Shown: positions 4,896 to 51,775, counted from the stretch's first letter. The stretch: 64,000 nucleotides of DNA from Oscillospiraceae bacterium (GCA_015065615.1 SVPY01000002.1:62973-126972), one strand, 5' to 3'. The notes: generated from the sequence alone by a model not told the origin. Program-made: numbers and translations.

Positions 4896-5699
4896 TTATA
4901 ATTCTTTGTGGGATTTTTCCACTATATCTTTAATGTTTATATCAGAAACAGTTAAAATATCATTCTTTTTTAAGTAAATTAAATACTCGATATTGCCTTC
5001 GGGTCCTTTTATGGGGGAATAGCTTAAACCCGAAATGCTTAAGCCAAGACTTAAAGCAAAATCGCATATATCCTTTAAAACGCTGCAATGCACGGATTTA
5101 TCCTTAACCACTCCGTTTTTACCTATATTCTGCTTGCCTGCTTCAAACTGAGGCTTTATAAGGCACATAGCTTCGGAATAACCTGACAAAAGTTCCTTAA
5201 TAACGGGCAAGATAATTTTAAGAGAAATAAAGGAGACGTCGCAGGAAATAAAGTCTATACCTTCGGGTACGGCTTCTTTTGTGATATTTCTTGCGTTGGT
5301 TTTTTCGAGGTTTACAACCCTTGCATCGCTTTTAAGTTTTTCGTGGAGCTGATTGGTGCCTACGTCTACTGCGTATACCTTTTTTGCTCCGTTTTGAAGC
5401 ATACAGTCGGTAAATCCGCCGGTAGATGCGCCGATATCCATACAGACCTTATTCTGAAGATCAATTTTAAATAGATTTATCGCCTTTTCAAGCTTCAAGC
5501 CGCCGCGGCTTACGTATTTTAAAGTTTCGCCTCTGATTTCAGGCAGGTCGCTTTCATTTAATAACAAACTCGGCTTGCTTATTTTTTCGCTTCCGAGAAA
5601 AACGACTCCGCTTTGAATCATATTTTTTGCTTTTTCGCGGCTTTCGGCTAAATTAAGCTTACAAAGAAGTAAATCCGCTCTTATTTTTTCACCCATCAA
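4896..5699 (-). CDS. tlyA: TlyA-family 16S/23S rRNA (cytidine-2'-O)-methyltransferase
   Basis: 267 aa. N-terminal S4 domain, RGGLKL motif and FtsJ-like SAM fold (DIGASTGGFTD). Conserved dxs-tlyA-nadK-argR-recN order. Confidence 0.85.
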   Translation of the reverse strand: MMGEKIRADLLLCKLNLAESREKAKNMIQSGVVFLGSEKISKPSLLLNESDLPEIRGETLKYVSRGGLKLEKAINLFKIDLQNKVCMDIGASTGGFTDCMLQNGAKKVYAVDVGTNQLHEKLKSDARVVNLEKTNARNITKEAVPEGIDFISCDVSFISLKIILPVIKELLSGYSEAMCLIKPQFEAGKQNIGKNGVVKDKSVHCSVLKDICDFALSLGLSISGLSYSPIKGPEGNIEYLIYLKKNDILTVSDINIKDIVEKSHKEL

Positions 5700-12157: not shown

Positions 12158-12191
12158 AATAAAAATTCCGCACACCCGAAGGCATGCGGAA
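12158..12191 (-). terminator. Intrinsic terminator closing the 12.2-22.5 kb operon
   Basis: Minus strand reads UUCCGCAUGCCuucgGGUGUGCGGAA followed by UUUUU, starting 14 nt after the stop at 12205. Confidence 0.75.
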
Positions 12192-12204
12192 AATTTTAAT
12201 TGAT

Positions 12205-12876
12205 TTATCTTGCTGCTTTAAGCTGGATGTTTCTCTCTTTTGTATTCTTTACGATTTCATTGCAAAGTGCAAGAGCGTTATCCTTAGCATCAACGGAATC
12301 GTAAAGCTTATTTGTAAGGTCGTAGATCTGAATTTCAATATTTCTTACAGCTTCGCTTGTTTTTACGGGGCTGTTGTAAACTTCATCGTATGCTTTTTCA
12401 ATAGCTTTTTTAACTTCCTTATCCTTTGCAAGCTCCAAAGCAGACTGTAATTTAGCACTGCAGGTCTTAACGAAAAGAATTTCTTTCTGGCGTTTTTCTT
12501 CTTTTTCTGCCGTAACTTCGTTAGCGATAAGGTTGATAAGAAGAACTATACCGTAAGCTGCTGCAAGAAGAATCTGAATAATAAGGCAAGCTTTGAAATC
12601 TTCGGGGCGAGCAAGAATAAAGATAATGCCTACTATAAATACAATGAAGAAGTAAACTGCACTTACAGAAGCTAATGCTAAACCGAAAACAGAGCTGCTT
12701 TTGCCTTTTCTTGTAAGTATGGGTGTTGCAACTACCATAATGTAAGCAAGGTGGATAAATGCGTAGGAGATCCAAACGGATGCAGGGTTCTCCTCAGGCT
12801 TGAGAAGGAAGAAAATAACATTAAAAACTATAAGAAAAATAAGGTCTAATGCTATATAAAGAATTGACTTTTTCAT
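12205..12876 (-). CDS. Hypothetical membrane protein: 4 predicted TM helices plus a C-terminal coiled-coil/helical domain
   Basis: 223 aa. Four hydrophobic ~20-aa segments by eye, then a charged helical ~95-aa tail. 32 nt downstream of the SPFH gene. Confidence 0.6.
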   Translation of the reverse strand: MKKSILYIALDLIFLIVFNVIFFLLKPEENPASVWISYAFIHLAYIMVVATPILTRKGKSSSVFGLALASVSAVYFFIVFIVGIIFILARPEDFKACLIIQILLAAAYGIVLLINLIANEVTAEKEEKRQKEILFVKTCSAKLQSALELAKDKEVKKAIEKAYDEVYNSPVKTSEAVRNIEIQIYDLTNKLYDSVDAKDNALALCNEIVKNTKERNIQLKAAR

Positions 12877-12908
12877 TTTAAAATCCCTTTCTTTTACGTT
12901 CCGTTAAA

Positions 12909-14111
12909 TCAGAAATTACTTAAAATTTCAATTTTCTTTGCGTTGTATTCCTGCTCTGTAATAAGACCCATATCGAAGAACTGCTTTAATTTCTGAAGCT
13001 TTGCCATAGGATCGTCTGCATTAGCAGCAGCGGGAGCAGGTGCGGGAGCTGCAGGAGCCTGAGTTTCAGCGGGTGCCTGCTGATTGAAACGGCCTGAAGG
13101 AGCAGCCTGCTGAGGCATAACCTGATTCTGCTGAGGCTGGTTATTTAAGGGAGTAAACATATTCTGTGCCATTGTACCGAATACGTTACCTGCTGCGAAG
13201 CCCATACCGAGACCTGCGCCTGCGGAAGCAACACCGCCTGCACCGGGATTTTCGGCAACCTTTGAAAGAATCTCGGCGGATTTCTGACGGGCCCAATCTT
13301 CACCGAGTACGTCGAAGGCGGCTTTCTGCATCTGAATTTCAGTGCCCATTTCCATCTTCTTCTGGTATGCGCTCATACCTATTTCATCATACTTCTTTCT
13401 CAGTTCACTGTCATCGATATCGAGAGCGGAAATGATAAACTGCTCGCAATTGAGACCGTATTCGCTTACTATTTCCTGCATTCTGGGCTGAAGCTCTGCG
13501 GAGAATTCATCGATTCTTGCTTCAATACCTAAAATTTCCGTATCAAGTTCATTTAAGTGCTTTGCAAGAGCTGATCTTATTTTGCTCTGGAACTGCTCGC
13601 CGAAATAGAGCTTTAAAGAATCCTGAGTAATACCTGCTACGTTGGAGCCAACGAGCTTACTGAGGAAAATGGAAGGATTGGCAATAGAGATCTTATATGC
13701 GCCGCGTGCGCGTAAATCTGTCTTTATGCCGAGCATCTTATCTCTTACGGCAATGGGGGAAGTTGTACCCCACTTAAGCTCCATAGAGTGAGACTGCTTA
13801 ACGAAATAGACAACGCAGTTAAAGGTACTGATACCGCCTGAGAATGCGTTTCTGAGTCTGCTGATAAAGGGATAGTTCTCTGTGGAGAGCTTGTATGTAC
13901 CCTTATCGAAGGTACCCTCGATATTACCGCCCTTTATAAACAGAGCCTGCTCGCCGGGCATAACTATAAGTGTGGAATTTGTGTTGAAGTCCTCCTCGGG
14001 CTGACGCCAGATAAGAAGATCGGGTGAGCCTGTATTTTTGATGACATCGGTCCAGTGCTTTTTACCGCCCTGGTAATTTACTTCATTGGGATTTTTGCCA
14101 AAGAGTGCCAT
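12909..14111 (-). CDS. SPFH/Band-7-like protein of the YdjI ('virion core protein-like') type with a P/Q/A linker and a C-terminal SHOCT domain
   Basis: 400 aa. The N-terminal pattern LIVMPGEQALFIKGG...VVYFV...KWGT matches the YdjI-type SPFH family as I recall it. The PAAPAPAPAA linker is followed by a C-terminal stretch (KLKQFFDMGLITEQEYNAKKIEIL) typical of SHOCT. Confidence 0.7.
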   Translation of the reverse strand: MALFGKNPNEVNYQGGKKHWTDVIKNTGSPDLLIWRQPEEDFNTNSTLIVMPGEQALFIKGGNIEGTFDKGTYKLSTENYPFISRLRNAFSGGISTFNCVVYFVKQSHSMELKWGTTSPIAVRDKMLGIKTDLRARGAYKISIANPSIFLSKLVGSNVAGITQDSLKLYFGEQFQSKIRSALAKHLNELDTEILGIEARIDEFSAELQPRMQEIVSEYGLNCEQFIISALDIDDSELRKKYDEIGMSAYQKKMEMGTEIQMQKAAFDVLGEDWARQKSAEILSKVAENPGAGGVASAGAGLGMGFAAGNVFGTMAQNMFTPLNNQPQQNQVMPQQAAPSGRFNQQAPAETQAPAAPAPAPAAANADDPMAKLQKLKQFFDMGLITEQEYNAKKIEILSNF

Positions 14112-14172
14112 AATATTTTTCCGCCTTTCAATATATTTAATTTATCTTTAATTTTTCACAAAAATAACAGCC

Positions 14173-14469
14173 TTATTTTCTGGGGAAGCCCTTTTTAATT
14201 GTATCAAGAGCTTTTTCTTTATCGTCACGGAGTGTGACCATAAAAGCATATACGCCTGCTGCATCCAAAGGTGAGATCTCGCTTAATTTTTTAGCCGTGT
14301 AGCCTTCAATAACCAAAGCGTTTTCACAATCGAAGCTTCTTGTATCAAGATACACGGAAAACTCTTTTGCAATATCCTCATATTTTAAAATCTTTTTCAT
14401 AAGGACATTAGCAACAACAGGTGTAACTTTCTTTTCCTCTATATAATATTTTAAAATTTTATCTTTCAT
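14173..14469 (-). CDS. Hypothetical 98-aa protein, tightly linked to the acidic zincin gene
   Basis: Starts 3 nt after the stop of the upstream gene. No signal peptide or TM segment. No motif recognised. Confidence 0.55.
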   Translation of the reverse strand: MKDKILKYYIEEKKVTPVVANVLMKKILKYEDIAKEFSVYLDTRSFDCENALVIEGYTAKKLSEISPLDAAGVYAFMVTLRDDKEKALDTIKKGFPRK

Positions 14470-14472
14470 ATA

Positions 14473-16047
14473 TTATCTGCCTTTCAAAGCCTGTAATCTA
14501 TCCTTGAACTGATTTGCAAAAGCTCTTGCCTCTGCCTCAACAAGCTGGTCTTCATAAGCCTGCTGGTCCAAATCGGGGCTGATGTAGTTATCGAAGTTGT
14601 GCTGATACTGGTAATCAAGAGCCGACTGAGGATTCATAGCTCTCTCATGCTGATGGCAATGCCATAACTCGTGAGCAATGGTATCGGCAGCCTCGTCGGA
14701 ATTATAAAGCATATATTCATTGACCATAAGGGTGTTGCTTTCGGGGTCATAGCCTCCGTAGTCGCCCTCTGTTTCATTATTATAATACTCTATTTTCGGA
14801 GGATTTTCAATACCCGATATTTCAGAAACATAATCTGCAAGACCCTGCATTGATTCTTTTTGTTCATCGAGACTTAAATTTTCCCAGTTGGATGCTTCGA
14901 AATTGGAAAGGGAAGAATTAAGACGTTCACTGTCGGTATCAAGGTTAACGTCCTTGAAGCCTTCGGCTAAAGCATCCGCCTCAATACCTTCGTAAATGGA
15001 ATCGTAATCGATGTCACTTATATCAACGGGCTCGTTGGTTTCAGACTGGCTGTAAGTGGAATCGTTAAGCTCAGTAACGCCATCGCGCTCCATATCCGTA
15101 TCGATTGAACCGTCGTCGTGAACTTCACCCATAGGCATACCCTCTGAAACTTCAGGCTCTTCGGCGGGAACTTCTTCCTCAAATGGGATTTCATCCTCTT
15201 CAAATGCATCTTCTTCAAAGGTTTCCTCTTCAAAGTCCTCTTCATTTTCGAAGGTACTGTCAAGCATTTCTTCGGAGGAATCGGAATCTTCCACGTCTTC
15301 TTCAAAATCTAAAGTTTCAAAGTCACCGTCAACACTCTCTTCGTAAGAATCCTCGTAGCTTTCGGTAACGTCCTCTTCGAAATCGTCAAATTCACCTGAA
15401 CCGACGGAGCTCTCTGTGCCGGGAGCTAAAATTTCTCTTACGCCCTCGTAATTTTCAATATCGTTCATCATTTCCCTTGCGCCGCCCTGACGGAAGCCGT
15501 TGAACACGTGGGGAGTAACCTGCTGACCGGGAAAAGCGTCGTTTAAAAATTCCTGCTGAAGGCGGTAACGGTCGGAAGCCAGCATACTTTCAATTTCACT
15601 TTCGGAATAACCTTTATCGCGGTAATCATCTGCAAGCACGTCCAGCTGCTGTTCCACGTTATTGTAGCCTGTTTCAAGAAGCTCTCGCTCATCACGAACT
15701 AAGGTTTTGGGAGCATCCTCTTCAAAATCGGTATAATTTTCACTATAATCATCAGTATTATAGTCGCTTGAGTTATAGTCAGTTTCGTTGTAATCCATAC
15801 TCATATCGTTTTCACTATCCTCATTAAAATCACCGGCATCAAAGGAAGAATCCGATGAAGTTTCCACATTATACTCAGATCCTGTATCTTCGCTAAATTC
15901 ATAGCCGCTATCCTGAGAGTAGTCGGTATCACTTCCCGTATCAGCAGAATAATCGGAAGTATCTGTATCAGAATAATCCGATGAGCTATCTGATGAATAA
16001 CTTAAATCAGAATCATTTGTTTCATAAGAGCTGAAATCTTCTTCCAT
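14473..16047 (-). CDS. Extremely acidic 524-aa protein with a C-terminal HExxH zincin-like module
   Basis: The N-terminal and central parts are D/E/S/Y-rich low complexity. The C-terminal ~130 aa contain AHELWHCHQHE (plus 14644-14676) and a downstream EAEARAF helix. No signal peptide or TM segment. Confidence 0.7.
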   Translation of the reverse strand: MEEDFSSYETNDSDLSYSSDSSSDYSDTDTSDYSADTGSDTDYSQDSGYEFSEDTGSEYNVETSSDSSFDAGDFNEDSENDMSMDYNETDYNSSDYNTDDYSENYTDFEEDAPKTLVRDERELLETGYNNVEQQLDVLADDYRDKGYSESEIESMLASDRYRLQQEFLNDAFPGQQVTPHVFNGFRQGGAREMMNDIENYEGVREILAPGTESSVGSGEFDDFEEDVTESYEDSYEESVDGDFETLDFEEDVEDSDSSEEMLDSTFENEEDFEEETFEEDAFEEDEIPFEEEVPAEEPEVSEGMPMGEVHDDGSIDTDMERDGVTELNDSTYSQSETNEPVDISDIDYDSIYEGIEADALAEGFKDVNLDTDSERLNSSLSNFEASNWENLSLDEQKESMQGLADYVSEISGIENPPKIEYYNNETEGDYGGYDPESNTLMVNEYMLYNSDEAADTIAHELWHCHQHERAMNPQSALDYQYQHNFDNYISPDLDQQAYEDQLVEAEARAFANQFKDRLQALKGR

Positions 16048-16079
16048 TTTAATTCCTCCTTAATGCTTTTTAATTTTTA

Positions 16080-16721
16080 TTAATAACTTTTTGCTGTGTG
16101 AATAATTAAGAATACACTCTCTACTATAAATACAGCTGCAACAATAAGATTTAAAATTGTAGCATACTGTGAAACCGCCATCGTGCCGTAAGTATAAATG
16201 TGGCTCTGTATAATTATGAGCACAATGTTTCCCACTGTATGCCAAAGGAAGAATACTGCCGATATAATTCCGAATATGGGGTTACCGTTTTTAAAGCAAT
16301 GTACACTGAACATAACAAAATAGAAACTATACACAAGGGAAAGACCAAAGAATAAAACAAATACTAATACACCATCTAAACCAAGGTTATTAATTAAGCC
16401 CTGAGCAGAAATATCAACACCGAAAAGACCGAGGAAATTAGGAAGTGCCGCTACACCTAAAGATGCTGCAGTAATAAGTAAAACACTTTCCCTCTCCTCC
16501 ATAAACATAAAGAAGAAGCCAAGCACCGCTAAACCAAACACCAAAGTATAGCCTACACCGTTAAAAGTACCTACTATTCTTTGAATATTATTGTATTCTT
16601 CCAGAGACTTTACGCCATATGTCATAGGAAGCACTATGTTAAGACCTGTGCCTATAAAAAAAACAAGAAGCCTTCCGATAAAACCGAATACGGCAAGTTT
16701 TTTACCTGTTTCGTAATTCAT
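16080..16721 (-). CDS. Paralogous polytopic membrane protein, copy 5 of 5
   Basis: 213 aa, ~6 TM by eye. Shares family motifs with copies 1-4 (FMFMEERESVLLIT; FKNGNPIFGII). Confidence 0.65.
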   Translation of the reverse strand: MNYETGKKLAVFGFIGRLLVFFIGTGLNIVLPMTYGVKSLEEYNNIQRIVGTFNGVGYTLVFGLAVLGFFFMFMEERESVLLITAASLGVAALPNFLGLFGVDISAQGLINNLGLDGVLVFVLFFGLSLVYSFYFVMFSVHCFKNGNPIFGIISAVFFLWHTVGNIVLIIIQSHIYTYGTMAVSQYATILNLIVAAVFIVESVFLIIHTAKSY

Positions 16722-16743
16722 AAAACGTCTCCTTACTTTACTG

Positions 16744-17307
16744 TCAATCGCTGTTTACTGCTGTAACGGCTGCAAGACCTAAATTAAGAGTAATAATAAC
16801 ACCGTTAAAGATATTGATAAGGTAATTAAGAATTCCGCCTACTCCACCGCCGAAAATAATAGCTATAGCTACGGGATATAAGAAAGCGAAGTAAACAAAA
16901 ATGAGAATCATAATAATTCCGGGGGCCGATTTTCCTTTTTTCATAAAGTTTAAGCCTAAGCCCAAAAGGAACAATTCCTCTAAAACGCTGTAAATAAGTT
17001 TTCCTATTGAAAGTTGTGCCCCAAAAACTACGTAGGGGAACAAGCCTGAGGACACCACTAAGGTTATAAGAATTGTAACTGCCGTAATTAAATCGAAAAA
17101 GTCTCTTTCGCCTATAAACTTTAAAAGATATCCGATAAAAGCAATGGCAAGACCTATAAGAAAACCGTAATTAAGATAAATATAGGTATCAGCAATTACC
17201 TCGTCACCGAAAACTATTGCACCGAAATAAGTAAGAATTCTTATACCTGCAGTTAGAGCGCATATTAAAAGTCCGCCACAAGAAATTTTACTACCAACGT
17301 TTGACAT
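16744..17307 (-). CDS. Paralogous polytopic membrane protein, copy 4 of 5
   Basis: Start moved to ATG 17307 (MSNVGSKIS..., aligns with MSETGKKIN / MKNKGNKIV of the paralogs). AAGGAG RBS lies 8 nt upstream. Motifs LKFIGERDFFDLIT and MKKGKSAPGII. Confidence 0.65.
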   Translation of the reverse strand: MSNVGSKISCGGLLICALTAGIRILTYFGAIVFGDEVIADTYIYLNYGFLIGLAIAFIGYLLKFIGERDFFDLITAVTILITLVVSSGLFPYVVFGAQLSIGKLIYSVLEELFLLGLGLNFMKKGKSAPGIIMILIFVYFAFLYPVAIAIIFGGGVGGILNYLINIFNGVIITLNLGLAAVTAVNSD

Positions 17308-17324
17308 AATTAAAGCTCCTTTTA

Positions 17325-17912
17325 TCAATCACTAGAAGCTGTGAAAGTACTGAAAATTAATGTTGCAAGCATAATAACTTCGTTAAATAAATACGTAATG
17401 AAAACTTCGGTATCTGTAAGAATCTTCATAATGGTAGCGTTTGCATGACCACCGAAAAGTTCCTCCGCACATAAAGGAAAAATTATTGCAAGGTAAGCAA
17501 ATGTAAGTAAGATTATACCGCCCTGCATTGTATCGCCTTTTTTGAGTACGTTAATACCGATACCTAAAAGGAATAAATACACTAAAGCACGCTGAATAAT
17601 GTTCTCTGCCATGCTGTATACGGGAATCTGAATAAAATTGAGTGACATTACTATTGAAACACCAATAGTTGCTACTGTTATTACATCGAAAACATCCTTT
17701 TCGCCAAGGAACTTTAAAACGTATCCTGCTGCGCAAAGGAGAAGACCAACGATAAAAGCAAGATTCATATAACCTACAATATCGTTAATTGCCATAAAAG
17801 GCATTTCTAATATTCTTGCAACCCCGCACATATAGAAAACCAATCTGGCTACAATAGCTAACACAGCTAATAAAAGACCAACAAAAACAATTTTATTTCC
17901 TTTGTTTTTCAT
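17325..17912 (-). CDS. Paralogous polytopic membrane protein, copy 3 of 5
   Basis: 195 aa, ~6 TM. Motifs LKFLGEKDVFDVIT and LKKGDTMQGGII. Ends ...SSD, like copy 4 (...NSD). Confidence 0.65.
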   Translation of the reverse strand: MKNKGNKIVFVGLLLAVLAIVARLVFYMCGVARILEMPFMAINDIVGYMNLAFIVGLLLCAAGYVLKFLGEKDVFDVITVATIGVSIVMSLNFIQIPVYSMAENIIQRALVYLFLLGIGINVLKKGDTMQGGIILLTFAYLAIIFPLCAEELFGGHANATIMKILTDTEVFITYLFNEVIMLATLIFSTFTASSD

Positions 17913-17931
17913 AACAAACTCCTTAAATTAA

Positions 17932-18486
17932 TCAGCCTTCCTGATTAATTGATATAGCACTTAAGCCGTAAGAAACAAATTTCACACCTGCATTGAATAT
18001 TAAAAGAACTGTCCATAATTCATCGGGAAGATCTGCATAAAATAATGTGGGAGCAATAACTGCAAAATAAAGGAAAACCAATACTCCTGCAATACCAAAA
18101 AGATGATTACCGTTTTTAAACGCTTTTATCGCAACACCCAACATTACGCAAACTGAAAGAGCATTCATTACCATCATTGTAAAGAAATCACGGTACCAAA
18201 GGTAACCTTCTTCGTTTGCAAGAGCAAACACGTTTATAATTAAGGTAACTACTGCTGTGCCTACAACAATTAAATCTGTAAAATCTCTGTCGCTAAAAAA
18301 TCTTAAAGCTGCGCCTATGGCAGCAATAAGCATTGCTCCTGCCATAATAAGATTTCCGATATTATTTATAGCGTAAAATAAATCACCGTCAAAAAATATC
18401 ATCAAAGCAGCAAAAGCGCACGCCGCCGCACCTAAAGCCGCCGCAATGTAGCCTATCAGATTAATTTTTTTACCTGTTTCACTCAT
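17932..18486 (-). CDS. Paralogous polytopic membrane protein, copy 2 of 5
   Basis: 184 aa, 6 hydrophobic segments. Motifs LRFFSDRDFTDLIV and FKNGNHLFGIA. Confidence 0.65.
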   Translation of the reverse strand: MSETGKKINLIGYIAAALGAAACAFAALMIFFDGDLFYAINNIGNLIMAGAMLIAAIGAALRFFSDRDFTDLIVVGTAVVTLIINVFALANEEGYLWYRDFFTMMVMNALSVCVMLGVAIKAFKNGNHLFGIAGVLVFLYFAVIAPTLFYADLPDELWTVLLIFNAGVKFVSYGLSAISINQEG

Positions 18487-18575
18487 AATAACACCTCAAA
18501 CTAAATATCTCAATATAGCACTCTGCGCCTTCCCCCGTTTTACGGGAAAAGGCGTGAGTTTTTTGTAAATTTTAA

Positions 18576-19193
18576 TTATTCTTCATCTGCTGCGGTTTTT
18601 TCGCCTTCGAGCTTCTTTTTATTTGTTTCAAGTAAGCAAAGGGCGGGAGCTGCGATAGCAATCACTCTGTAAAGGTTATTAAAGCCCCAGTTAATAATAC
18701 TAAAGAAGAAGTTGTCGTCTACTTCATAAACAAGGAAAGCAGAGAACATATTAAGGCAAGGTCCGATAATAGCCATATAAGCAAGAAGACCTGCAAAGAT
18801 AATTGCAAAGTTTTTGTTATCATTCTGGAAAGCATCAAGAGCAAAAGCTGCAAGGTAAGAATAGAAAACTACGTTTAAAATAAGTGTAACTATAAAATGA
18901 GGGGAAGGAATCCATAAAAGAACGAACTGTGCTAAAAGTGTGCCGCAAAGAATGATATCGTTTATCTTTCTGCCTTCGTTATACATTAAGAAAGCGCCTG
19001 CTGCAGCAGCTACGATACCTGCAACGCTGAGCCAGAATGTGCACATTAAAACAAACTGGAAAAAGCCTAAATTCTGCCAACCGAATAAGCAGATGCCGAA
19101 TTCTGCCAAAGCGTTAAGAGCCATAGTGCCGAAACCTGCAAGTGTAAGAATTTTTCCGTTTGAGTGAGTTAAATAACTATTTTCAATAAGCAT
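18576..19193 (-). CDS. Paralogous polytopic membrane protein, copy 1 of 5 (most divergent, charged C-terminal tail)
   Basis: 205 aa. AAGGAG RBS. Motifs LMYNEGRKINDIIL and FQNDNKNFAII. Tail NKKKLEGEKTAADEE. Confidence 0.6.
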   Translation of the reverse strand: MLIENSYLTHSNGKILTLAGFGTMALNALAEFGICLFGWQNLGFFQFVLMCTFWLSVAGIVAAAAGAFLMYNEGRKINDIILCGTLLAQFVLLWIPSPHFIVTLILNVVFYSYLAAFALDAFQNDNKNFAIIFAGLLAYMAIIGPCLNMFSAFLVYEVDDNFFFSIINWGFNNLYRVIAIAAPALCLLETNKKKLEGEKTAADEE

Positions 19194-19231
19194 AATTTTT
19201 TCTCCTTAAATAATATAATTTAATTTAGATT

Positions 19232-21913
19232 TTATTTTTTTAATGAATTCTCTATCTGAGAATCGGTTAACTGAATTTTTGTGCCGTATTTTATACGTCT
19301 AAAAAGCTGAACCTTAACGCAGGATCTAAGCTCGGGGGTAAAGGGTTCGTCGTTAAGCTCGTTTTTAATAAGCATACTGATTTTTTCAAGAACCTTCTTT
19401 ACAGGCTCCGCGGTTTTATCCTCGGCTTTAAAGTTCTTTATAAAAATTCTTCGGGCAATTTCTTTTGCTAAGTTACGCCTGAAATAATCGCAGGTTTTAC
19501 TGCAGCAGGGAACCAATTCGCACTGAGGATAAGGTCTCAGTTTTTCCGCCCTGCTGTTCCAGTATTTCGAAAGGCTCTTGATGCCTTCATCGGAAAGACT
19601 GATGCTTATGTTATTTTCAAGGCGGTAATCGGGTGTAACCACTTCTTCGGGTTCCTCAAGTTTATTGAAGAACAGGAAAGCTTCACCCGGCTTTAAGCGT
19701 GAAAGCCTTTGCTTCTGATTTTCCGACATATTCGTTGAATCGGCAATAATTGTTTTATCCTGAGCTTCAACTATGCGGAAGGTCATTTTCATATCCGTTA
19801 AAGCCACTACGTCGGTAGTAACTTTTCTTGGGGACTGATCCGCAATAATTAGACCGACACCCAGAGAACGTATCTCTGCCAGCATTCTCTTTACAAGCTC
19901 CTGAGCTATGGCTGCGGGATTTGCTTCATTTTGTGAGGATGAATTTCTGTCAAGAAGCACGTGGGCTTCTTCAAGAAGAATAACGTTCTTAAGCCCTCCC
20001 TCACCTACGTAGTTGCTGTTTACGTAAGCAAGAATTGAAAGAAGGATAAGAGCAATCAAAAGCGCTTTCTGGTCGCCGTTTTCTATGGCGGCAAGCTCTA
20101 TTACCGTAGGCTTCTTTAAAATATCCTCAATGGGAATGCTGAAATAGTTATCGAAAAGATTAACCAAGCTGTTAAGTCTTACCACGCCTGCGCGGCCGAT
20201 ATTCTTTGCGTCGCCTGTATAGCCGATTTCCTCAAAGGTCTGCTGGAAGCACTTGATGAAGTCGGAAATATTAAATATCTTACCTTTATCGTCCACAGTG
20301 TAGGTATCAAGCCATCTGTGGTCGGAGTAGCAATTGTTTATGGTCTCCTCAAATATCTTATCAAGAGGAGTGCTCATGGATACGCCTGCGGCAAAAGCAG
20401 TTTTTAAAGTGGATTTGTAGGTCTCAAGCCTTACGTTCTTAGGCGGAACGAAGGGATTGAACACAAAGGGTGAGATAAAATTCTTACCCGGTGTAAATAC
20501 CTGTAGGTCGGGAATACTCTGCACCATTGCTCTGTATTCATTCTTTGCAGGCTCAATTACAAGGAAGGGGATCTTGTGGTCCTTCCAGAGTCTGTCAAGA
20601 AGACTTACCGAGAAGGTTGTTTTACCTGAGCCGGGAGTACCCACTATAAGCATATGCTTTGCAAGGTCCTTAACGGAGAAGCCTATCGTGTCCCCTTTCG
20701 AGGAGGATTTAAGCTTACCTACAGTTATATCTCCTGCATTTATCAGGTTATCGTTATATGAGCGGCTCTGCTTTGTAGCTTCGTTTACCTTAAAGCCTGC
20801 ATATACGTTACTGCTGCCTAAAGGCAGACGGAACACTTCACTTGCTTCGGCGGCGGTAATTATACGGGGTAATCTGTAAAGAGCGGCTGAAAACTGACCG
20901 CTGTACCATATATTCTGATTTCTGCCCTTATTGAGCATCAGCTCGTTTACTGCCCACGGCAGGGGGAAGAAATTAGTATTCTTATTTACCTCTGTTTTTG
21001 AAAGCGGTACCAGCTTCAGATTTGCATTCTGCCCTACGCCTGTGGCAATCTGACCGAATACCCTTGTGGATATTCCCGCCGCAGCCATATTATCACCGTA
21101 AACAAGCACGTTGTAGCTGAATAAAGGAGCGTTCTTGTTATCGGAATAATACTTATAAAGCTCTGAGTGTTTACCTGCAAGGGCAAAGCTTAAGTTGCCC
21201 ACGCTCATATCGTTAACGCCGCGGCTTAAGGTTTCAAGTACCTGTACGTTTCGGTCAATGGCTGCCATTTCCTCGCTTGTAAAGTAAGTTGGCATAAGCT
21301 GTATAGATAAAGCCGCGTTGGGGTATTCTATAAGCGCATTTATAATTTTGCTTATGTCGCTGCTTCCTACGGGGAATCTATCGAAGGAATAGCAGTAAGG
21401 CATAAGCTGATTTTCAAGATTTTCTGCCTTTTCATCTTTTATAAGAGCTCTTATATCAGCATCGTTAACAGAACTTACGGCTGCCGCTATTTCCTTATAA
21501 TCCACACTTTGGAACTCGTATTTTTCCTGCCTGAGTGTAGCTTTGCAGATATTTGCCGCCGCATTTACTAAAGCGTTGGCACTTTCTTTTGTGAAATCGA
21601 TAGCTCTTGTAATTATGTAAAGATTGATTTTTGCCTTATAAGGCTGATTTTTTACGGCTTCGGTTGCAAAAAGCAGCTCCACCGAAATATCCTTATAGGC
21701 ACTTCCGCTTAAAACTCCCGTTCGGTAAAGCTGATAAAGCTCGCCAAGCATTATGTTTATGTCGCTTTTGAAGCTTTCGAGAGTTCTTTCGGGAGTTGTA
21801 TCATCAGGATTTACTATTTTAAAATGCGGTATTGACGTAATTTTCAAAGCGGAAAGAGATACTACCTCTTTGCCTCCCGATAAATTTACGTAACTGATTT
21901 TATTTTCCTGCAT
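19232..21913 (-). CDS. HerA/FtsK-superfamily P-loop ATPase with a ~420-aa unassigned N-terminal region and a C-terminal Cys cluster
   Basis: 893 aa. Walker A KHMLIVGTPGSGKTT (plus 20615-20641). Walker B type ILLEEAHVLL (plus ~19951-19983). HerA-like RSLGVGLIIADQSPRKV. C-terminal C-x5-CC-x3-C. Confidence 0.7.
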   Translation of the reverse strand: MQENKISYVNLSGGKEVVSLSALKITSIPHFKIVNPDDTTPERTLESFKSDINIMLGELYQLYRTGVLSGSAYKDISVELLFATEAVKNQPYKAKINLYIITRAIDFTKESANALVNAAANICKATLRQEKYEFQSVDYKEIAAAVSSVNDADIRALIKDEKAENLENQLMPYCYSFDRFPVGSSDISKIINALIEYPNAALSIQLMPTYFTSEEMAAIDRNVQVLETLSRGVNDMSVGNLSFALAGKHSELYKYYSDNKNAPLFSYNVLVYGDNMAAAGISTRVFGQIATGVGQNANLKLVPLSKTEVNKNTNFFPLPWAVNELMLNKGRNQNIWYSGQFSAALYRLPRIITAAEASEVFRLPLGSSNVYAGFKVNEATKQSRSYNDNLINAGDITVGKLKSSSKGDTIGFSVKDLAKHMLIVGTPGSGKTTFSVSLLDRLWKDHKIPFLVIEPAKNEYRAMVQSIPDLQVFTPGKNFISPFVFNPFVPPKNVRLETYKSTLKTAFAAGVSMSTPLDKIFEETINNCYSDHRWLDTYTVDDKGKIFNISDFIKCFQQTFEEIGYTGDAKNIGRAGVVRLNSLVNLFDNYFSIPIEDILKKPTVIELAAIENGDQKALLIALILLSILAYVNSNYVGEGGLKNVILLEEAHVLLDRNSSSQNEANPAAIAQELVKRMLAEIRSLGVGLIIADQSPRKVTTDVVALTDMKMTFRIVEAQDKTIIADSTNMSENQKQRLSRLKPGEAFLFFNKLEEPEEVVTPDYRLENNISISLSDEGIKSLSKYWNSRAEKLRPYPQCELVPCCSKTCDYFRRNLAKEIARRIFIKNFKAEDKTAEPVKKVLEKISMLIKNELNDEPFTPELRSCVKVQLFRRIKYGTKIQLTDSQIENSLKK

Positions 21914-21965
21914 AACAAATTTTCACCTGCCTGATACTGCAAAAGCAGTAAGTTTAATAAACTTT

Positions 21966-22523
21966 TTACGGATAGTCAATTCCGCCGTTGGGTGCATGGC
22001 ACCTTATAACTCTTCTTATACCTTTAAAGGTACCTTTTAAAAAACCGTATTTATTTACGGACCTTATCATATATTCGCTGCAGCTTGGTTCAAATCGGCA
22101 CCTCAGCCTTGTATCGTCGCTGGCTTTTGACTGATACAGATGTACAAGCCATATTACGGCTTTTTTACCGATAATCAAAATATAAACGAGAGAAAAAGCT
22201 ATGCTTAAATATGCCGTATAGGGTCTTAAATATAGGTTGCTTAAAACTACAGCGGCGCTTAAACCTGCAATGAACAAAACAAGCGCCAATATAAAATTTT
22301 TGTAACTCACTTTCGGTCTTCTTAAAGGATTATAGGGCCTTACAAAGCCTGTGGAATAAACCACGGGAGCGCCCATAACCCTCACTCTGTCCGAATCGTC
22401 ATCTTTTTCTTCGCTTTTATTAAGCAGACTCTCGTCCACTTCCCAAAGCTTTTTTTCTTCTTCACTTAATTCGGAAAACTTCTTTTTAGGTTCTTCCTCA
22501 TTTATCTTTTTTTCAATTTCCAT
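21966..22523 (-). CDS. Membrane-anchored YidD-domain (membrane protein insertion efficiency factor) fusion protein
   Basis: 185 aa. E/K-rich N-terminus and two hydrophobic segments. The C-terminal ~60 aa carry the YidD/DUF37 signature CRFEPSCSEY...RCHPxxxGGxD (CRFEPSCSEYMIRSV...IRCHAPNGGIDYP). Confidence 0.7.
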   Translation of the reverse strand: MEIEKKINEEEPKKKFSELSEEEKKLWEVDESLLNKSEEKDDDSDRVRVMGAPVVYSTGFVRPYNPLRRPKVSYKNFILALVLFIAGLSAAVVLSNLYLRPYTAYLSIAFSLVYILIIGKKAVIWLVHLYQSKASDDTRLRCRFEPSCSEYMIRSVNKYGFLKGTFKGIRRVIRCHAPNGGIDYP

Positions 22524-22561
22524 TATTTCTCCGTTTATCTTAACGGTACCTTAAGTTATGT

Positions 22562-22597
22562 AAAAAGGCGAGACAATTAAGAAACTGCCTCGCCTCG
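22562..22597 (-). terminator. Probable intrinsic terminator after the 230-aa orphan gene
   Basis: Minus strand reads AGGCGAG-16 nt-CUCGCCU followed by UUUUUA. The stem is short and the loop large, so confidence is moderate. Confidence 0.4.
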
Positions 22598-22629
22598 GCT
22601 TACATAAGACCGAATCTTAGTTTATTTAA

Positions 22630-23322
22630 TCAGATGGAGTACTTCTTCTCTCTGATCATTGCCTTAGCAGCCTGAATGCTTCTCTCTACGCCGCCGTTGT
22701 TTCTGAGGGAGAAGGAGTAGGAAGCACCGGGAACGATGATCTCAAGAGCGTCAACTGTGTAGTTGTTCTTTGTAGCGTCGCTGCCGAAGGGATTGCAGCC
22801 GCAGCCCTTACCGAAGTCGATCTTCTCAACGAGCTTGTGCTCTGTGCTGAAGTTTGTGATGTCTGTGTAGAAGAAATCGTTTGTCTCTTCAATAACGTCG
22901 TCACTGATCATGGAGAATGTAAGTGTGTATGTATACATCTGTGTAGCGCTGAAGAAAATCCATGTTACGCTGTAGTGTGTAGAAACTACGTCGCCGTCGT
23001 CAACCTTAACGTCAACACCTTCACCTACATACTTGAAGGAAGAGAACACGATGGGAGGGATCTCTTCGATCTGGCTCTGGTCGAGACCGATCATATCCAT
23101 AGCTCTCTGCTTGTGGTTGAAGCTGTCGCATCTTGCCTGTACCATATTGATATACTCGTCAAACTTAATGGGAGAACCCTTAATGAGACCGCAGCACTCA
23201 TCCTCTTTATAGAAGAAATCGATAATCTTCTTCTGTTCCTTGCTTTTACCCTTCTTCATAAGTGTAATAGCAGCTTTTTTAGCAGCTTTGTTCATTGCTG
23301 CACCAAATAATTCACCAGCCAT
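22630..23322 (-). CDS. Hypothetical 230-aa soluble protein with expression-type codon bias
   Basis: Strong GGAGG RBS. Codon choice is heavily skewed (AAG, ATC, TTC, GAC, ACA, AGA). Appears to have its own terminator. No motif recognised. Confidence 0.6.
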   Translation of the reverse strand: MAGELFGAAMNKAAKKAAITLMKKGKSKEQKKIIDFFYKEDECCGLIKGSPIKFDEYINMVQARCDSFNHKQRAMDMIGLDQSQIEEIPPIVFSSFKYVGEGVDVKVDDGDVVSTHYSVTWIFFSATQMYTYTLTFSMISDDVIEETNDFFYTDITNFSTEHKLVEKIDFGKGCGCNPFGSDATKNNYTVDALEIIVPGASYSFSLRNNGGVERSIQAAKAMIREKKYSI

Positions 23323-23420
23323 TTTTAATTTTCCTCCTCAGGAATTTTTATTTTAATATTTTAAATAATATCGCTATTATTTTGGCCAAAATTTAATTTA
23401 TTCTGTATTTTTATGATTTA

Positions 23421-24011
23421 TTACAGCATAGGCTTCGGTAAACCGCAGGCTGTAAATACCATATCGATATCTATATCCGATACACCTAAAGCTTTAGCTT
23501 CAGCTAATTCCTGCTGGAAATTGGGTGTAACGTTCAAATACTTTCTTGCGAAATAATCCTGCTTAATATATGCAAGCATATAATAGTAAATACCACGAGG
23601 CTCTATCATATTTGCCGCATTGAGATTTTCCACAATTTTATTGATTGCAGGTCTTAAAAGAAGGAAGGGCTTCTTGCCGCCGAGCATTGAAATAGCCGCA
23701 TAGAAATATGCTTCGGAATTATCAAAATTATCCTCAATAGCCTTTTCAAAAGCTTTTGCAGCCTCTTCATACTTCTTTAATTTGAGGTAAACCATACCGA
23801 TGGAGAAGTTAAGTGTGGGGTCATCGGGATTTTCCCTTAAATTATTCTGATAACCTCTGGTAAGCTGCTGAAGCTTGGGACCGGGGAGATCAATAACACT
23901 GTTGAAAGTAGAGATTGCAACAGGGGAACCGCAATATTCACAAACCTTCATACCTGTTGTAACAGGAGCGTTGCAACCGGGGCAACGAATATCAATAACA
24001 TGAGCTGCCAT
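23421..24011 (-). CDS. Zinc-ribbon plus TPR-repeat protein
   Basis: 196 aa. N-terminal CPGC-x13-CEYC ribbon, then TPR-like helices (IGMVYLKLKKYEEAAKAFEKAIE). Confidence 0.6.
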   Translation of the reverse strand: MAAHVIDIRCPGCNAPVTTGMKVCEYCGSPVAISTFNSVIDLPGPKLQQLTRGYQNNLRENPDDPTLNFSIGMVYLKLKKYEEAAKAFEKAIEDNFDNSEAYFYAAISMLGGKKPFLLLRPAINKIVENLNAANMIEPRGIYYYMLAYIKQDYFARKYLNVTPNFQQELAEAKALGVSDIDIDMVFTACGLPKPML

Positions 24012-24285
24012 AATACCACCCTTTTAATTTTAAAGGAAATATCCCTGAATTTAAAACCCTCAAATTTAACCGCATTTAATTTATATACCAAGTGTACATG
24101 AAACTTTTCACTACACTAAATATAGAAATATTATATTACTCTAAAGTGCAAAAGTCAACACAAAATCCGCTAAATTCTTAACATTTTCGACATATTTTTT
24201 TAATAATATTGATATTCTCTTAGTCTTATTAAATATATATACTGCTAAGCTTAATTACTATGCATTTATATTTCTTTTACTTAAA

Positions 24286-43301: not shown

Positions 43302-44474
43302 TTATTTACTTTTGATAATCCTTTTAACAATTCTTTTGGCGCGGGAAATCACTCTTTTAATAAGGGAAGGCTTTTTCTCTTTGAACCAATTTTCGCAAAG
43401 GGCAATATTTCCGTTTCTGATAAGCTCAAAAGCTTCTTCACGCCTTGGGTTTGGCTTTATAGAGTTGATTACGGCGCTGTTCTGGGCTAATGCGTCCGCT
43501 TCGCTTACCTCTTTAAAACAGATTCTACCGCTTATTTTTTCGAATACCTTTCTGCCCGAATCGGAATTCAGGAACACCAAAGACGTCCCCTTGTTATCGT
43601 CCATTTCGGGGAGAACGTCCCATACGCCCCAGAAATCGCCCAAAGTAATATCGCTTTTATGATTATACCCTTTGAACTGACAATTTTCGCAGGATTTTCT
43701 CGTGATATATCCGCCGACAAAAAGCTTCATAAACAGACTTTCGTGAGATTTAAGCTCCGATTTTTTGCCGTTTCCGTAATCAAAAAGATTTGAATAAGCG
43801 TACCTGCTCCAGCCTGTATTTTTTGAGCGGAGATTTATATTTTCAGGCAGTACGCCCTCGTTATCAAGCCTTGCGCGGTACTTTATATATTCCACCCAAG
43901 CCATAGGCGAAGGCACGCTGTGGCAAACCACATCCACCGTAAGCAAATTTTCATAATCTTTTTTCAAAAAAGAAACAAGCCCGCCAACCTGACATGGAGT
44001 GCCCGAAAAAAGCACCTTCTGCCCTTTTTCAAGGCGTTCCTTTACGTTTTTGAAGGTATCGCCCAAATCGCTCTGGGAATATTTGGCGCCCCGAAGCTTA
44101 TTAAGCTCCGTTTCATTTTCGGCGCAAATATGCCTTACCGCAAAATTTTCATCATACGCGGCACCGAAAACCGCGCCATTTTCTTCAAGGATGGTTCCCG
44201 CAATCTCGCTGAAAACACCTCCCGAGGTGCTTTTTATTCTTACGGCATCATCTTTTGCGTACGCCGCATAGAATTTCGGCTGAGCGCTTTCGCTTTCATT
44301 CTTATTCATTACGGGGCAGGTCTTTTGGCAAAGACCGCAGGAAATGCACCTACCGGTATAAATTACAGGACGCAAAAACCCCTTTTCATCCGCCTTGAAA
44401 CTTATGCAATTCACAGGACACACAGCCGCACAAGCCGTACACCCGGTGCAGAGTTCAAATTTACAAATCTCCAT
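43302..44474 (-). CDS. FrhB/FdhB-like (coenzyme F420 hydrogenase/dehydrogenase beta subunit family) protein with an N-terminal 2x[4Fe-4S] ferredoxin domain
   Basis: 390 aa. CTGCTACAAVCP and CISCGLCQKTCP cluster motifs. This family recurs in polysaccharide loci next to pyruvyl transferases. Confidence 0.7.
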   Translation of the reverse strand: MEICKFELCTGCTACAAVCPVNCISFKADEKGFLRPVIYTGRCISCGLCQKTCPVMNKNESESAQPKFYAAYAKDDAVRIKSTSGGVFSEIAGTILEENGAVFGAAYDENFAVRHICAENETELNKLRGAKYSQSDLGDTFKNVKERLEKGQKVLFSGTPCQVGGLVSFLKKDYENLLTVDVVCHSVPSPMAWVEYIKYRARLDNEGVLPENINLRSKNTGWSRYAYSNLFDYGNGKKSELKSHESLFMKLFVGGYITRKSCENCQFKGYNHKSDITLGDFWGVWDVLPEMDDNKGTSLVFLNSDSGRKVFEKISGRICFKEVSEADALAQNSAVINSIKPNPRREEAFELIRNGNIALCENWFKEKKPSLIKRVISRAKRIVKRIIKSK

Positions 44475-44483
44475 TTTACCGCC

Positions 44484-45473
44484 TTACTTTTTAGTTAATA
44501 TAGCTTTTCCTTTGCACAATACTTTCCAAAATAATACTTTCGGAGATTTTAACACAGAATAATAAACCACTCTATCGTCTAAATTCATTCTGCCTGTTTT
44601 TTTCAGAAGACCGAAACACTCAACCATCCTGTCTTTTTTCAAGTTAGCTGCGGCGCGGTACAAAGCTCCTCTGTAATAAACAGAATTATACATATTTTCG
44701 TATTTTTTATACTCTTTCGGGTCTTTAACCAATCTATCTAATACGTTGAAATAAATCTCTCTCCAACCGGCAGAGTTTCTTTCTGAAAGATAGTACTGTT
44801 CAATAGGATCTTTTGCGTGAGAATGGGAATTTTCATATATGTAATATTCCATTAGTGGTTCGTCAATATAACCGAATTTTTGATTATATGTAACAGGTAA
44901 AAGCATTTGAAAATTCTGACCAAATCTTGAAGGAAAAATATTTTTATCAGGGTATATCGAAAAAAACACATCCGACCTTATCATATAAGTTCCGGGCCAA
45001 TTATTCGTTTTGCCTAAACTTAATGCAGTAAATAAATCTGTAATTTTCTTTTCTGCTTCATTTATTATAATCAATTCACGGTTTTCACCTTTCATATACC
45101 AGCCATTACTTCTAACGCCGGCACAATCAGGATTTTCATTCAAGAAGTTTGCTCGTTTTGATACAGAGCCTTGCAACAAACGATCATCAGAATCCAAAAG
45201 AGTAATATAATCGCCACGTACAGCTTTAACAGCAGTATTAGTTGCAGCTCCTACACCTCGGTTTTCTTGATGAATATAAATTAATGAAAAACCTTTTTCT
45301 TCAAACTTCTTTTTCCACTTAAATATTTTAGATTCACTATCATCTACAGATCCATCATTAACAACAATAAGCTCAATATTCGGATAATCTTGCTCATATA
45401 CAGAACCAATACTCATATCAAGATACTTTTCTGCATTATAGCAAGGCATAATAATACTGACTTTTACCGACAT
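44484..45473 (-). CDS. Family 2 glycosyltransferase
   Basis: N-terminal VSIIMPCYNAEKYL...VNDGSVDDS and a DSDD DxD motif. Confidence 0.85.
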   Translation of the reverse strand: MSVKVSIIMPCYNAEKYLDMSIGSVYEQDYPNIELIVVNDGSVDDSESKIFKWKKKFEEKGFSLIYIHQENRGVGAATNTAVKAVRGDYITLLDSDDRLLQGSVSKRANFLNENPDCAGVRSNGWYMKGENRELIIINEAEKKITDLFTALSLGKTNNWPGTYMIRSDVFFSIYPDKNIFPSRFGQNFQMLLPVTYNQKFGYIDEPLMEYYIYENSHSHAKDPIEQYYLSERNSAGWREIYFNVLDRLVKDPKEYKKYENMYNSVYYRGALYRAAANLKKDRMVECFGLLKKTGRMNLDDRVVYYSVLKSPKVLFWKVLCKGKAILTKK

Positions 45474-45496
45474 ACAAACTCCACCATAAATATTAA

Positions 45497-46405
45497 TTAT
45501 ATAATCCTATCAATAATTTGACTTAAGTAATCTTTATCTTCGCATATACTTATATTATGCAACTCACTTCTTGCCTCATTTGTGTACTTATTTGGTATGG
45601 GAACTTTTTCTTCAGCATTCATTAAACACCACATATATTCGATATCAACATGTCCAACATCTAATGCTTGTATTCCCATATCAGTCAAATCTGCCGCGAG
45701 TACAGTTGCAGTAGGTCCTAATGCAAGTAACACCAATTCATCTTTATGGTGTTCACTTATACTCTTTATTATCTGTTCATATTTATCATATGCGTTTTCA
45801 GCTGGTGCCAAAATTCTTTTAATCGATTTAGTATTTTTAAACAAATCATTACCAACACCCAAACGGGTTTTATCGCCTTCAACAATCATAATATCCTTAT
45901 TCCCCCATAATGATTTTAAGTTATTGAATCGATCTAACGCGGATTCCTTATCGTGCCAATCCATATAAGGTCTAGTAATCATGCTATCACCAAAACTATA
46001 CCTTTTTTTACCACATTTACATATTAACTTAAACAAATCATTATAATTATTTAGTGAATAGTTATTCCAAAAATACGCAGATTTAACTGTCAACCCATTG
46101 GTTGTTTTTATACAAACAGGTATGCAGATTAATATATTATCGTTCTTACCACATAATACATTTAATAACGATTCTTTTAGTTCTTTTGAATAATTTTGAA
46201 AACCAATTTTACTAGATTGTAACATCATTTTAAATTCACCATCACCATATCTACTAATTGAACAGTGATGTTTTTTTATGTATTCAATAGTTTCGTTGAA
46301 ACTCATTATATGTATAGGATGAAATAATTTATTTATTTTAGGTATTAATCTTTCTATAATCGGAACATATATAGGTCGAAGCAGCTTCTTTATTCTTTCT
46401 TTCAT
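45497..46405 (-). CDS. GT-D fold glycosyltransferase (DUF1792 / SP_1767-like)
   Basis: SRYGDGEF motif typical of DUF1792. Start set at ATG 46405 behind an AAGGTG RBS (the ORF-track start is a GTG). Confidence 0.6.
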   Translation of the reverse strand: MKERIKKLLRPIYVPIIERLIPKINKLFHPIHIMSFNETIEYIKKHHCSISRYGDGEFKMMLQSSKIGFQNYSKELKESLLNVLCGKNDNILICIPVCIKTTNGLTVKSAYFWNNYSLNNYNDLFKLICKCGKKRYSFGDSMITRPYMDWHDKESALDRFNNLKSLWGNKDIMIVEGDKTRLGVGNDLFKNTKSIKRILAPAENAYDKYEQIIKSISEHHKDELVLLALGPTATVLAADLTDMGIQALDVGHVDIEYMWCLMNAEEKVPIPNKYTNEARSELHNISICEDKDYLSQIIDRII

Positions 46406-46444
46406 AATTAACACCTTTCACCTTTGTTATTATTGGGGTAACAA

Positions 46445-47416: not shown

Positions 47417-47429
47417 AATAAACTCCAAT

Positions 47430-49650: not shown

Positions 49651-49663
49651 TATTTCACCTATT

Positions 49664-51774: not shown

Positions 51775-51775
51775 A

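Follow-up and report, generated by a model that had tools for sequence, protein, structure and literature searches.

Five tandem paralogues of a new six-helix membrane protein family in an Oscillospiraceae operon with a HerA-like ATPase and a toxin-like protein

Introduction

Tandem arrays of small multi-transmembrane (TM) paralogues are known from type VIIb secretion system (T7SSb) loci, examples being the TsaI/DUF443 proteins encoded next to TspA and the DUF5079-5085 proteins encoded downstream of essC variants. These arrays lie beside an ATPase of the FtsK/HerA superfamily and beside polymorphic toxins, and their copy number varies among lineages. Here we describe an array that resembles them in these respects. 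It consists of five tandem genes for small membrane proteins, located at positions 16080-19193 on the minus strand of a 64,000-nucleotide (nt) stretch of DNA from an Oscillospiraceae bacterium (GCA_015065615.1, SVPY01000002.1:62973-126972), which we refer to as the window. The five genes are true paralogues, their products belong to a new and very rare family, and they are embedded in an operon that encodes, among others, a HerA-like ATPase, an acidic toxin-like protein and a soluble SPFH protein.

Other described systems share some of these features. In Bacillus subtilis, the Band_7_1 protein YdjI is soluble, and its recruitment to the membrane depends on two membrane proteins from the same operon, YdjG and YdjH (PMC8581546). 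Like the proteins studied here, YdjG and YdjH (SamG and SamH; pspA-ydjGHI) are integral membrane proteins that are co-encoded with a soluble SPFH protein of the Band_7_1 type, and the fact that the window operon begins with a gene for a Zn-ribbon protein can be listed as a further likeness. The archaeal Ced system likewise has small polytopic membrane proteins, CedA, together with an ATPase that resembles HerA, the HerA/VirB4-like CedB. The VirB6 paralogues of the Rickettsiales are polytopic membrane proteins encoded in tandem near a secretion-type ATPase. Finally, the S components of energy-coupling factor (ECF) transporters resemble the family in their size (~180-200 aa), their six helices and their very low sequence identity, and several paralogous S components can share one cytoplasm-facing partner.

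Results and Discussion

A preliminary description of this DNA held that the five genes encode tandem paralogues with a common architecture and shared loop motifs, and our analysis bears this out. Firstly, all 15 motif strings that had been quoted for the five copies are present verbatim in the translations. Secondly, copies 3 and 4 are, as had been proposed, the closest pair (36-37% identity). Pairwise BLASTP comparisons gave E-values of 1e-18 for copies 3 and 4, 8e-10 for copies 2 and 3, 2e-8 for copies 2 and 4, and 5e-7 for copies 1 and 2. Because the pairs involving copy 5 were weak (1e-4 to 7e-4) and that of copies 1 and 4 was not significant, we built leave-one-group-out hidden Markov models (HMMs), in which an HMM of the family minus one orthologue group is used to score the left-out group. 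Against the HMM built without its own group, each of the window copies scored 40-84 bits (E 3e-14 to 7e-28), the lowest score being that of copy 5 (39.7 bits), whereas 200 composition-matched shuffled sequences reached maxima of 2-10 bits and reversed sequences a maximum of 2 bits. Relatedness is therefore well beyond chance, and the five window genes are true paralogues.

The five co-directional open reading frames (ORFs) encode proteins of 205, 184, 195, 187 and 213 aa. Copy 1 (18576..19193) has a charged C-terminal tail, copy 2 (17932..18486) is the most central member of the family, copy 3 (17325..17912) is nearest to copy 4 (16744..17307; 187 aa when counted from its ATG), and copy 5 (16080..16721) is the most divergent, with a longer outer loop between helices 3 and 4. 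All of them are preceded by a strong Shine-Dalgarno site. Identical gene calls exist in a public metagenome-assembled genome named 'Ruminococcaceae bacterium' (E7564_00970-00990), in which each product is annotated as a hypothetical protein. The ribosome-binding site of copy 4 had been placed directly upstream of, and against, the stop codon of copy 3. The two do abut, but the AAGGAG site lies directly downstream of the TGA-TAA stop of copy 3, 8 nt before the ATG. An alternative, longer TTG start of copy 4 at position 17328 would overlap copy 3.

The 89-nt spacer between copies 1 and 2 shows 82% column identity, which is above that of the adjoining coding sequence. It contains a predicted, strongly conserved RNA hairpin (18520-18559, minus strand; dG -27.5 kcal/mol, z -3.8) that has compensatory changes at three pairs and no U-tract. 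Nothing in Rfam matched anywhere in the operon, this hairpin included. The hairpin could serve in processing, stability or attenuation and thereby separate copy 1 from copies 2-5. A promoter-like site at 18513-18485 was considered as a promoter of copy 2 and rejected, since its -10 element overlaps the start codon.

The six-helix proteins constitute a new and very rare family, for which we detected no relatives whose function or structure is known. Scans of the five proteins against Pfam, NCBIfam, PADLOC and PHROGs gave nothing above noise, and a Pfam scan of 42 family members revealed no family common to more than three of them. A PDB sequence profile search with the family gave noise only, and a Foldseek search with the AlphaFold2 model of copy 2 yielded no match (best E 0.47 in PDB and 0.25 in BFVD). 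Thus, neither sequence nor fold matched any transporter family. A word-indexed search of 5.8 billion proteins retrieved 13 family clusters, and 54 clusters at E<=1e-3 were obtained when 1.84 billion representatives were searched exhaustively with a profile. The latter span 87-228 aa, most being full-length matches of ~170-230 aa and a few being fragments.

The hydropathy profiles of the copies agree with the AlphaFold2 model of copy 2 (pLDDT 85.8, pTM 0.79) in predicting six hydrophobic helices, which in the model are long and form a bundle in which the fourth is kinked; both approaches back the approximately six-TM architecture first proposed. In an alignment of 21 members, lysines and arginines total 107 in the N-terminus and the loops connecting helices 2-3 and 4-5, against 21 in loops 1-2, 3-4 and 5-6. 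According to the positive-inside rule, both termini are therefore predicted to be cytoplasmic. The best-conserved positions (in copy 2 numbering) are G5, K6, K7, G12, G58, R67, D68, D71, K124, G126 and N127. These coincide with three motifs noted earlier, namely an N-terminal G-K-K, a [DE]-R-[DE]-x-x-D loop after TM2 and a K-x-G-N turn before TM5, and they are located on the cytoplasmic side, with the exception of G58, which is in TM2. The family alignment contains no conserved polar or catalytic residues within the membrane. The early remark that no catalytic-looking polar residues are conserved thus holds for the family, whose conservation is found nearly entirely in cytoplasmic loops, and a structural rather than an enzymatic role remains the best reading.

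Comparison of the paralogues with their orthologues adds a second aspect. Among the window paralogues, identity is 30% in the cytoplasmic segments, 19% in the TM helices and only 5% in the outer loops, whereas the outer loops of orthologues from different lineages are 53% identical. It follows that the copies share an inner face, and that each of them maintains its own outer face. Copies 1, 2, 4 and 5 have orthologues, in conserved order, in all three lineages with large arrays (the window lineage and loci L001 and L067); the copy 1 orthologues in L001 and L067 are 57-73% identical. No gene in the arrays of these two loci is a clear orthologue of copy 3, which therefore sits in a middle position of fast turnover. 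The dN/dS values of orthologue pairs, which are approximate because dS is ~1 and hence near saturation, range from 0.09 to 0.29 (copy 1, 0.16-0.28; copy 2, 0.09; copy 4, 0.24-0.27), compared with 0.06-0.19 for core operon genes. The array orthologues are under purifying selection.

The array is part of a 13-gene unit on the minus strand (12166-24158) that shares one predicted promoter-like site (TTGACT-17-TATAAT, 24158-24130) and one terminator (12191-12166). The first gene encodes a Zn-ribbon and TPR protein (23421..24011). It is followed by genes for p230 (22630..23322), a soluble 230-aa protein that belongs to the conserved frame of the operon and has no known domain; a YidD fusion (21966..22523) with two TM segments and a C-terminal YidD domain (71.6 bits); and an 893-aa P-loop ATPase with a DUF87 domain (19232..21913), located immediately upstream of copy 1. 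Downstream of copy 5, a toxin-like slot is occupied by the gene for a low-complexity acidic protein of 524 aa (14473..16047; 30% D+E) that ends in an HExxH zincin domain. Next are the gene for p98 (14173..14469), a 98-aa candidate immunity protein or inhibitor that is always encoded 3' of the HExxH domain gene, and that for an SPFH protein (12909..14111; Band_7_1, 122 bits) with a C-terminal SHOCT domain. The last gene (12205..12876) encodes a 4-TM protein with a cytoplasmic helical tail. Hydropathy analysis revealed no membrane segments in the SPFH protein, the ATPase, the TPR protein or p230. The gaps between the ATPase gene and a family gene are only 11-38 nt. In the window lineage the locus has a conserved chromosomal context, adjoining genes for an M16 peptidase and Lgt. 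Elsewhere in the window, the region 44000-54000 has a G+C content of 0.29-0.36, compared with ~0.41 outside it, and its GC skew is strongly negative; this block may consist of genes that were acquired horizontally or of genes for surface polysaccharides.

The neighbouring ATPase can be assigned to the HerA/FtsK superfamily on three grounds: it matches PF01935 (DUF87) with 42.2 bits against a cut-off of 23.2, its Walker motifs GTPGSGKTT and LLEEAH are invariant, and its closest PDB match is HerA (4d2i, 3e-10). Against the NCBIfam equivalogs for HerA, CedB/CedD, EssC and VirB4 all of its scores were far below the cut-offs. The best of these was a partial match to CedD (81.9 bits against a cut-off of 600), CedB reaching 23.3 bits against 700. 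An AlphaFold2 model of the ATPase made from a 9-sequence alignment (pLDDT 47.6) was too poor and was not used. The comparison with Ced-mediated DNA import is limited, since the CedD match is partial, the operon is bacterial and its cargo would appear to be acidic toxin proteins rather than DNA.

The presence of this ATPase bears on the idea, taken from the preliminary description, that the array recalls the VirB6 proteins of type IV secretion systems (T4SSs). In its strong form, it would make the five proteins channel subunits akin to VirB6 within a secretion or conjugation apparatus. Two points speak in its favour: the ATPase is a member of the broad P-loop superfamily that also includes VirB4, and more than one VirB6 paralogue is present in Rickettsiales. 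However, VirB6 proteins are of roughly 300 aa or more and have a large central loop and a TrbL/VirB6 domain, whereas the window proteins are 184-213 aa long and lack this domain. PF04610 was found in 0 of the 42 family members at E<=1, genes for VirB4, VirD4, VirB8-11 and a relaxase are absent from the window operon, and the NCBIfam matches to TrbC and VirB11 reached only 13-16 bits against cut-offs of 250-800. Pfam and the gene content of the operon rule out membership of the VirB6/TrbL family; the analogy is not supported, and we attach next to no probability to a T4SS channel.

Relatives of the ATPase are numerous. A search retrieved 1773 of them at E<=1e-5, the best 120 of the 1773 being 67-96% identical to the window protein, and a one-genome-per-species scan gave 56 loci, at which identity is 59-83%. 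Overall, ATPases that are 59-87% identical occur in gut, rumen and termite anaerobes from eight or more phyla. Its loci come from Clostridia, Bacteroidota (Paludibacter, Azobacteroides), Treponema (Spirochaetota), Planctomycetota, Fibrobacteria (Fibrobacterota), Cloacimonadota, Desulfovibrionaceae (Desulfobacterota) and Acholeplasmataceae. Some of these operons adjoin integrases, relaxases or defence-type genes (NACHT, DUF1016 nuclease). The distribution of the ATPase, together with its integrase and relaxase neighbours, points to horizontal spread. A tblastn search of plasmids and phages gave only distant matches, the best being on a Priestia megaterium plasmid (32% identity). On this plasmid (pN447-3.1, 106849-113322; locus L075), the alignment with the ATPase homologue covers 90% of the length, and the next gene encodes a 1135-aa hypothetical protein without a Pfam domain; the two genes may represent a distant and simpler version of the ATPase with its cargo.

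The remaining genes of the operon recur elsewhere in identical order, the operon comprising 6-13 genes. A second scan, seeded with the SPFH protein, gave 80 metagenome loci, many of them apparently from a few recurring samples. In some of these (L103, L116, L119, L135 and L153) only the frame is present, consisting of the genes for the TPR protein, p230, the YidD fusion, the SPFH protein and the 4-TM protein. In other SPFH-seeded loci, the YidD and SPFH genes are separated by an insert with genes for the ATPase, an acidic protein and a small protein. Taking all loci together, most have such an insert, in which the acidic protein is a polymorphic toxin and the small gene is immunity-like. The operon, though not the array, is present in the cultivable strains or species Ruminococcus albus AR67, Blautia hansenii and Bengtsoniella intestinalis. 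A survey of polymorphic toxins lists only the YueA-like ATPase of the T7SS (PMC3482391), and our full-text literature searches found no description of the operon.

The horizontal mobility of the operon, and the NACHT and DUF1016 nuclease genes that sometimes accompany it together with integrases, might suggest that the five proteins are membrane-disrupting effectors of abortive infection or defence, which the ATPase or SPFH machinery would trigger to depolarise an infected cell. TM effectors are common in defence systems. Nevertheless, PADLOC gave no match, the operon already possesses an enzymatic toxin, and its chromosomal context beside the M16 peptidase and Lgt genes is conserved in the window lineage. 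In addition, a set of five or six paralogues that keep a stable order and evolve under purifying selection does not resemble the known single TM effectors. We regard a role as defence effectors as very improbable.

The six-helix family is present in a minority of these operons. Five copies are found in the window clade (L005-L007), and six in L001 and L067, whose ATPases are 83% and 87% identical to that of the window. There are two copies in L061, L071 and L073, and one in L018, L022 and L076; the rest of the ATPase-seeded loci have none, nor do any of the 80 loci seeded with SPFH. Hence, the five-fold paralogy remarked upon at the outset is retained, as judged from dN/dS, but it is not a fixed trait of the family. 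Where the family occurs, its position is constant. In all eight independent family loci with readable flanks (the window clade, L001, L067, L018, L022, L061, L071 and L076), the family gene follows either the YidD fusion or directly the ATPase gene; L073 shows YidD followed by two copies only. Five informative look-ups revealed no orphan copies outside the operon, so that the association with the operon is exclusive in the contexts that could be read. In L076, the gene order is TPR, p230, YidD, family member, SPFH and 4-TM. Since this locus has the family in the absence of both ATPase and toxin, the family is linked to the membrane/SPFH frame.

Several observations show that the family is dispensable. 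On the ATPase tree, family-bearing loci are scattered. Loci L031 and L061 have ATPase genes with 95.7% DNA identity and carry the same WHH toxin. L061 contains a 2.7-kb segment with two family genes (12670-15377), in place of which L031, on a Faecalibacterium prausnitzii contig, has ~305 nt (5005-5309) that include the 3' remnant of a 615-aa family gene. This remnant, between intact ATPase and toxin genes, indicates a recent deletion: L031 lost both family genes and kept the rest of the operon. Given that the family is absent from most operons, it is not an essential channel.

Dispensability is also what would be expected if the five proteins were unrelated cargo, such as small-solute permeases or housekeeping membrane proteins, in a permissive insertion point. 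The slot between YidD and SPFH is indeed a hotspot that takes up ATPase, toxin and immunity genes, as well as a second TM family in L012 and L018. This second family, of ~175 aa and unrelated to the first, has its gene between those for the ATPase and the toxin; in L012 (4797-5312) it follows the ATPase gene directly, and in L018 (11904-12440) it comes after the six-helix member. On the other hand, every informative context of the six-helix family is this operon, whereas an independent transporter would be expected elsewhere too. The lack of conserved intramembrane polar residues and of any transporter match likewise disfavours an unrelated transporter, and we consider cargo of this kind improbable. 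Similarly, the likeness to ECF S components does not extend beyond the general features mentioned above: the family has no Pfam match, the operon encodes neither EcfT nor EcfA or any other ABC ATPase, and substrate-binding polar residues are not conserved.

The acidic proteins of these loci behave like polymorphic toxins, as judged from their shared N-terminus, their interchangeable heads and the small gene that co-varies with them. The N-terminus, M-x-[DE]-E-[FY]-D..S.D, is followed by acidic repeats, and the C-terminal heads vary by locus. A glutamine deamidase head (Gln_amidase, papain-fold toxin 1) is found in six loci. Other heads are a TNT NADase, an ADP-ribosyltransferase (ADPrib_exo_Tox; L018 and L023) and a WHH/colicin-type nuclease (L057 and L061), and the SprT/DUF6782-like zincin head is carried by the window protein and by those of about a dozen further loci. 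In the 524-aa window protein, ~380 residues of D/E/S/Y-rich low-complexity sequence precede a minimal HExxH zincin of this type. The gene after that of a zincin always encodes the 98-aa protein, and those after the other heads encode other small proteins. We found no signal peptide, TM segment or known trafficking domain (LXG, WXG, PAAR, RHS) in the acidic proteins. Relatives in other phyla combine the same zincin domain with a short leader of ~60-100 aa that has repeated G-x-DLN motifs. In L061 and L018, the usual small gene after the toxin gene is absent. One L061 family member (13594-15441) is fused to a C-terminal extension of ~380 aa without a recognisable domain; the possibility that this is a fused immunity domain was rejected, as it matches no small protein encoded after a toxin.

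With a toxin-like gene next to the array, the main rival explanation is that the five proteins are protective and immunity-like, each shielding the envelope from a different membrane-acting toxin or competitor attack, on the pattern of the polytopic immunity arrays of T7SSb loci. The locus is of the polymorphic-toxin type; variable copy number, turnover of middle copies and dispensability are typical of immunity arrays; and the outer loops are where the paralogues differ most. However, the associated toxin heads (zincin, ADP-ribosyltransferase, WHH nuclease and glutamine deamidase) act in the cytoplasm and differ among the family loci; the zincin, ADP-ribosyltransferase and WHH nuclease heads, which are unrelated, all co-occur with the family. 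Moreover, the HExxH toxin has its own co-varying partner, the 98-aa protein, and most loci carry this pair without the family. The array genes lie upstream of the toxin gene, beside the ATPase or YidD gene and not after the toxin gene, and family and toxin are separable: L076 has the family without a toxin, and L031 lost the family and kept the same toxin. Conservation is concentrated on the cytoplasmic face, and the look-ups for orphan copies were negative. Together, the variation in toxin type, the zincin's own partner and the separability from the toxin disfavour cognate immunity, which we consider unlikely, though less so than the other rivals discussed here.

The same observations set the family apart from the T7SSb arrays. 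Although the two are arranged alike, the family has no sequence or Pfam relation to the T7SSb proteins (DUF443 and DUF5079-5085 in 0 of 42 members), its genes are located between the ATPase and toxin genes and are independent of toxin type, and it is the cytoplasmic face that is conserved. The window locus also lacks WXG100, LXG, EssA, EssB and EsaA. Adjacency to, and co-variation with, a membrane-acting toxin, the feature that characterises immunity in T7SSb, was not seen for the family.

The reading we prefer, tentatively, is that the paralogues are accessory integral-membrane anchor or platform subunits that dock soluble components of the operon through their shared inner face. An accessory membrane subunit is favoured because the cytoplasmic face is conserved, because the family is tightly linked to YidD and the ATPase, and because four other products of the operon (ATPase, SPFH protein, TPR protein and p230) are soluble. 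The genomic context would suit an anchor: the family is co-operonic with a soluble Band_7_1 SPFH protein, and the L076 member directly precedes the SPFH gene. Each protein would span the membrane with six helices, both ends being cytoplasmic, and the GKK, [DE]R[DE]xxD and KxGN motifs would form one common cytoplasmic surface that docks the Band_7_1 SPFH protein, the HerA-like ATPase or both. Every copy would present its own face outside the cell. In the Oscillospiraceae lineage, duplication would have led to five or six copies in fixed order, with outer loops that are distinct and individually conserved, a pattern that would fit a hetero-oligomeric platform or conduit in which the copies hold non-redundant positions, or else a series of adaptors that serve as alternatives. 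What the data show is that the genes are paralogous, how the proteins are oriented and where they are conserved, that they are tied to this operon, under selection and dispensable; that they dock partners, form oligomers or help to move the toxin is what we infer from these patterns.

Four points weigh against anchor or platform subunits. First, the family is present in 0 of the 80 SPFH-seeded loci and in ~4 of the 56 ATPase-seeded genome loci. Second, L031 kept its operon after losing both family genes. Third, the dN/dS values are approximate, as stated above. Fourth, hhalign comparisons of the family with the operon's m223, YidD fusion, p230 and TPR proteins gave probabilities below 1%. The parallel with YdjG and YdjH is likewise incomplete: a PspA gene is absent from the window operon, membrane proteins (YidD fusion, 4-TM protein) are already part of the frame, and the family, which is optional, has no Pfam family in common with YdjG and YdjH.

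A more ambitious proposal concerns the operon as a whole. It could be a protein-translocation or delivery machine, in which a hexamer of the HerA/FtsK type would thread the polyanionic, DNA-like acidic leader of the toxin through a membrane platform with an SPFH ring as its scaffold, the five or six paralogues forming a hetero-oligomeric conduit or gating ring specific to this lineage. We consider such a machine about as improbable as cargo, and clearly less probable than anchor or platform subunits.

Conclusions

In their logic, the closest analogues of the array are the polytopic arrays of T7SSb loci and the YdjG/YdjH anchors. The locus itself appears to be a polymorphic-toxin conflict locus with an ATPase of the FtsK/HerA type and accessory membrane proteins. 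The significance of the array lies mainly in that it flags a widely transferred operon for which the literature searched holds no description. Should this operon prove to be a machine for handling toxins, it would give the gut microbiota a new route for conflict between bacteria or against phages, and the optional six-helix family would provide a handle on the attachment of the machine to the membrane. If, on the other hand, the family is protective cargo, it would represent a new class of membrane immunity proteins.

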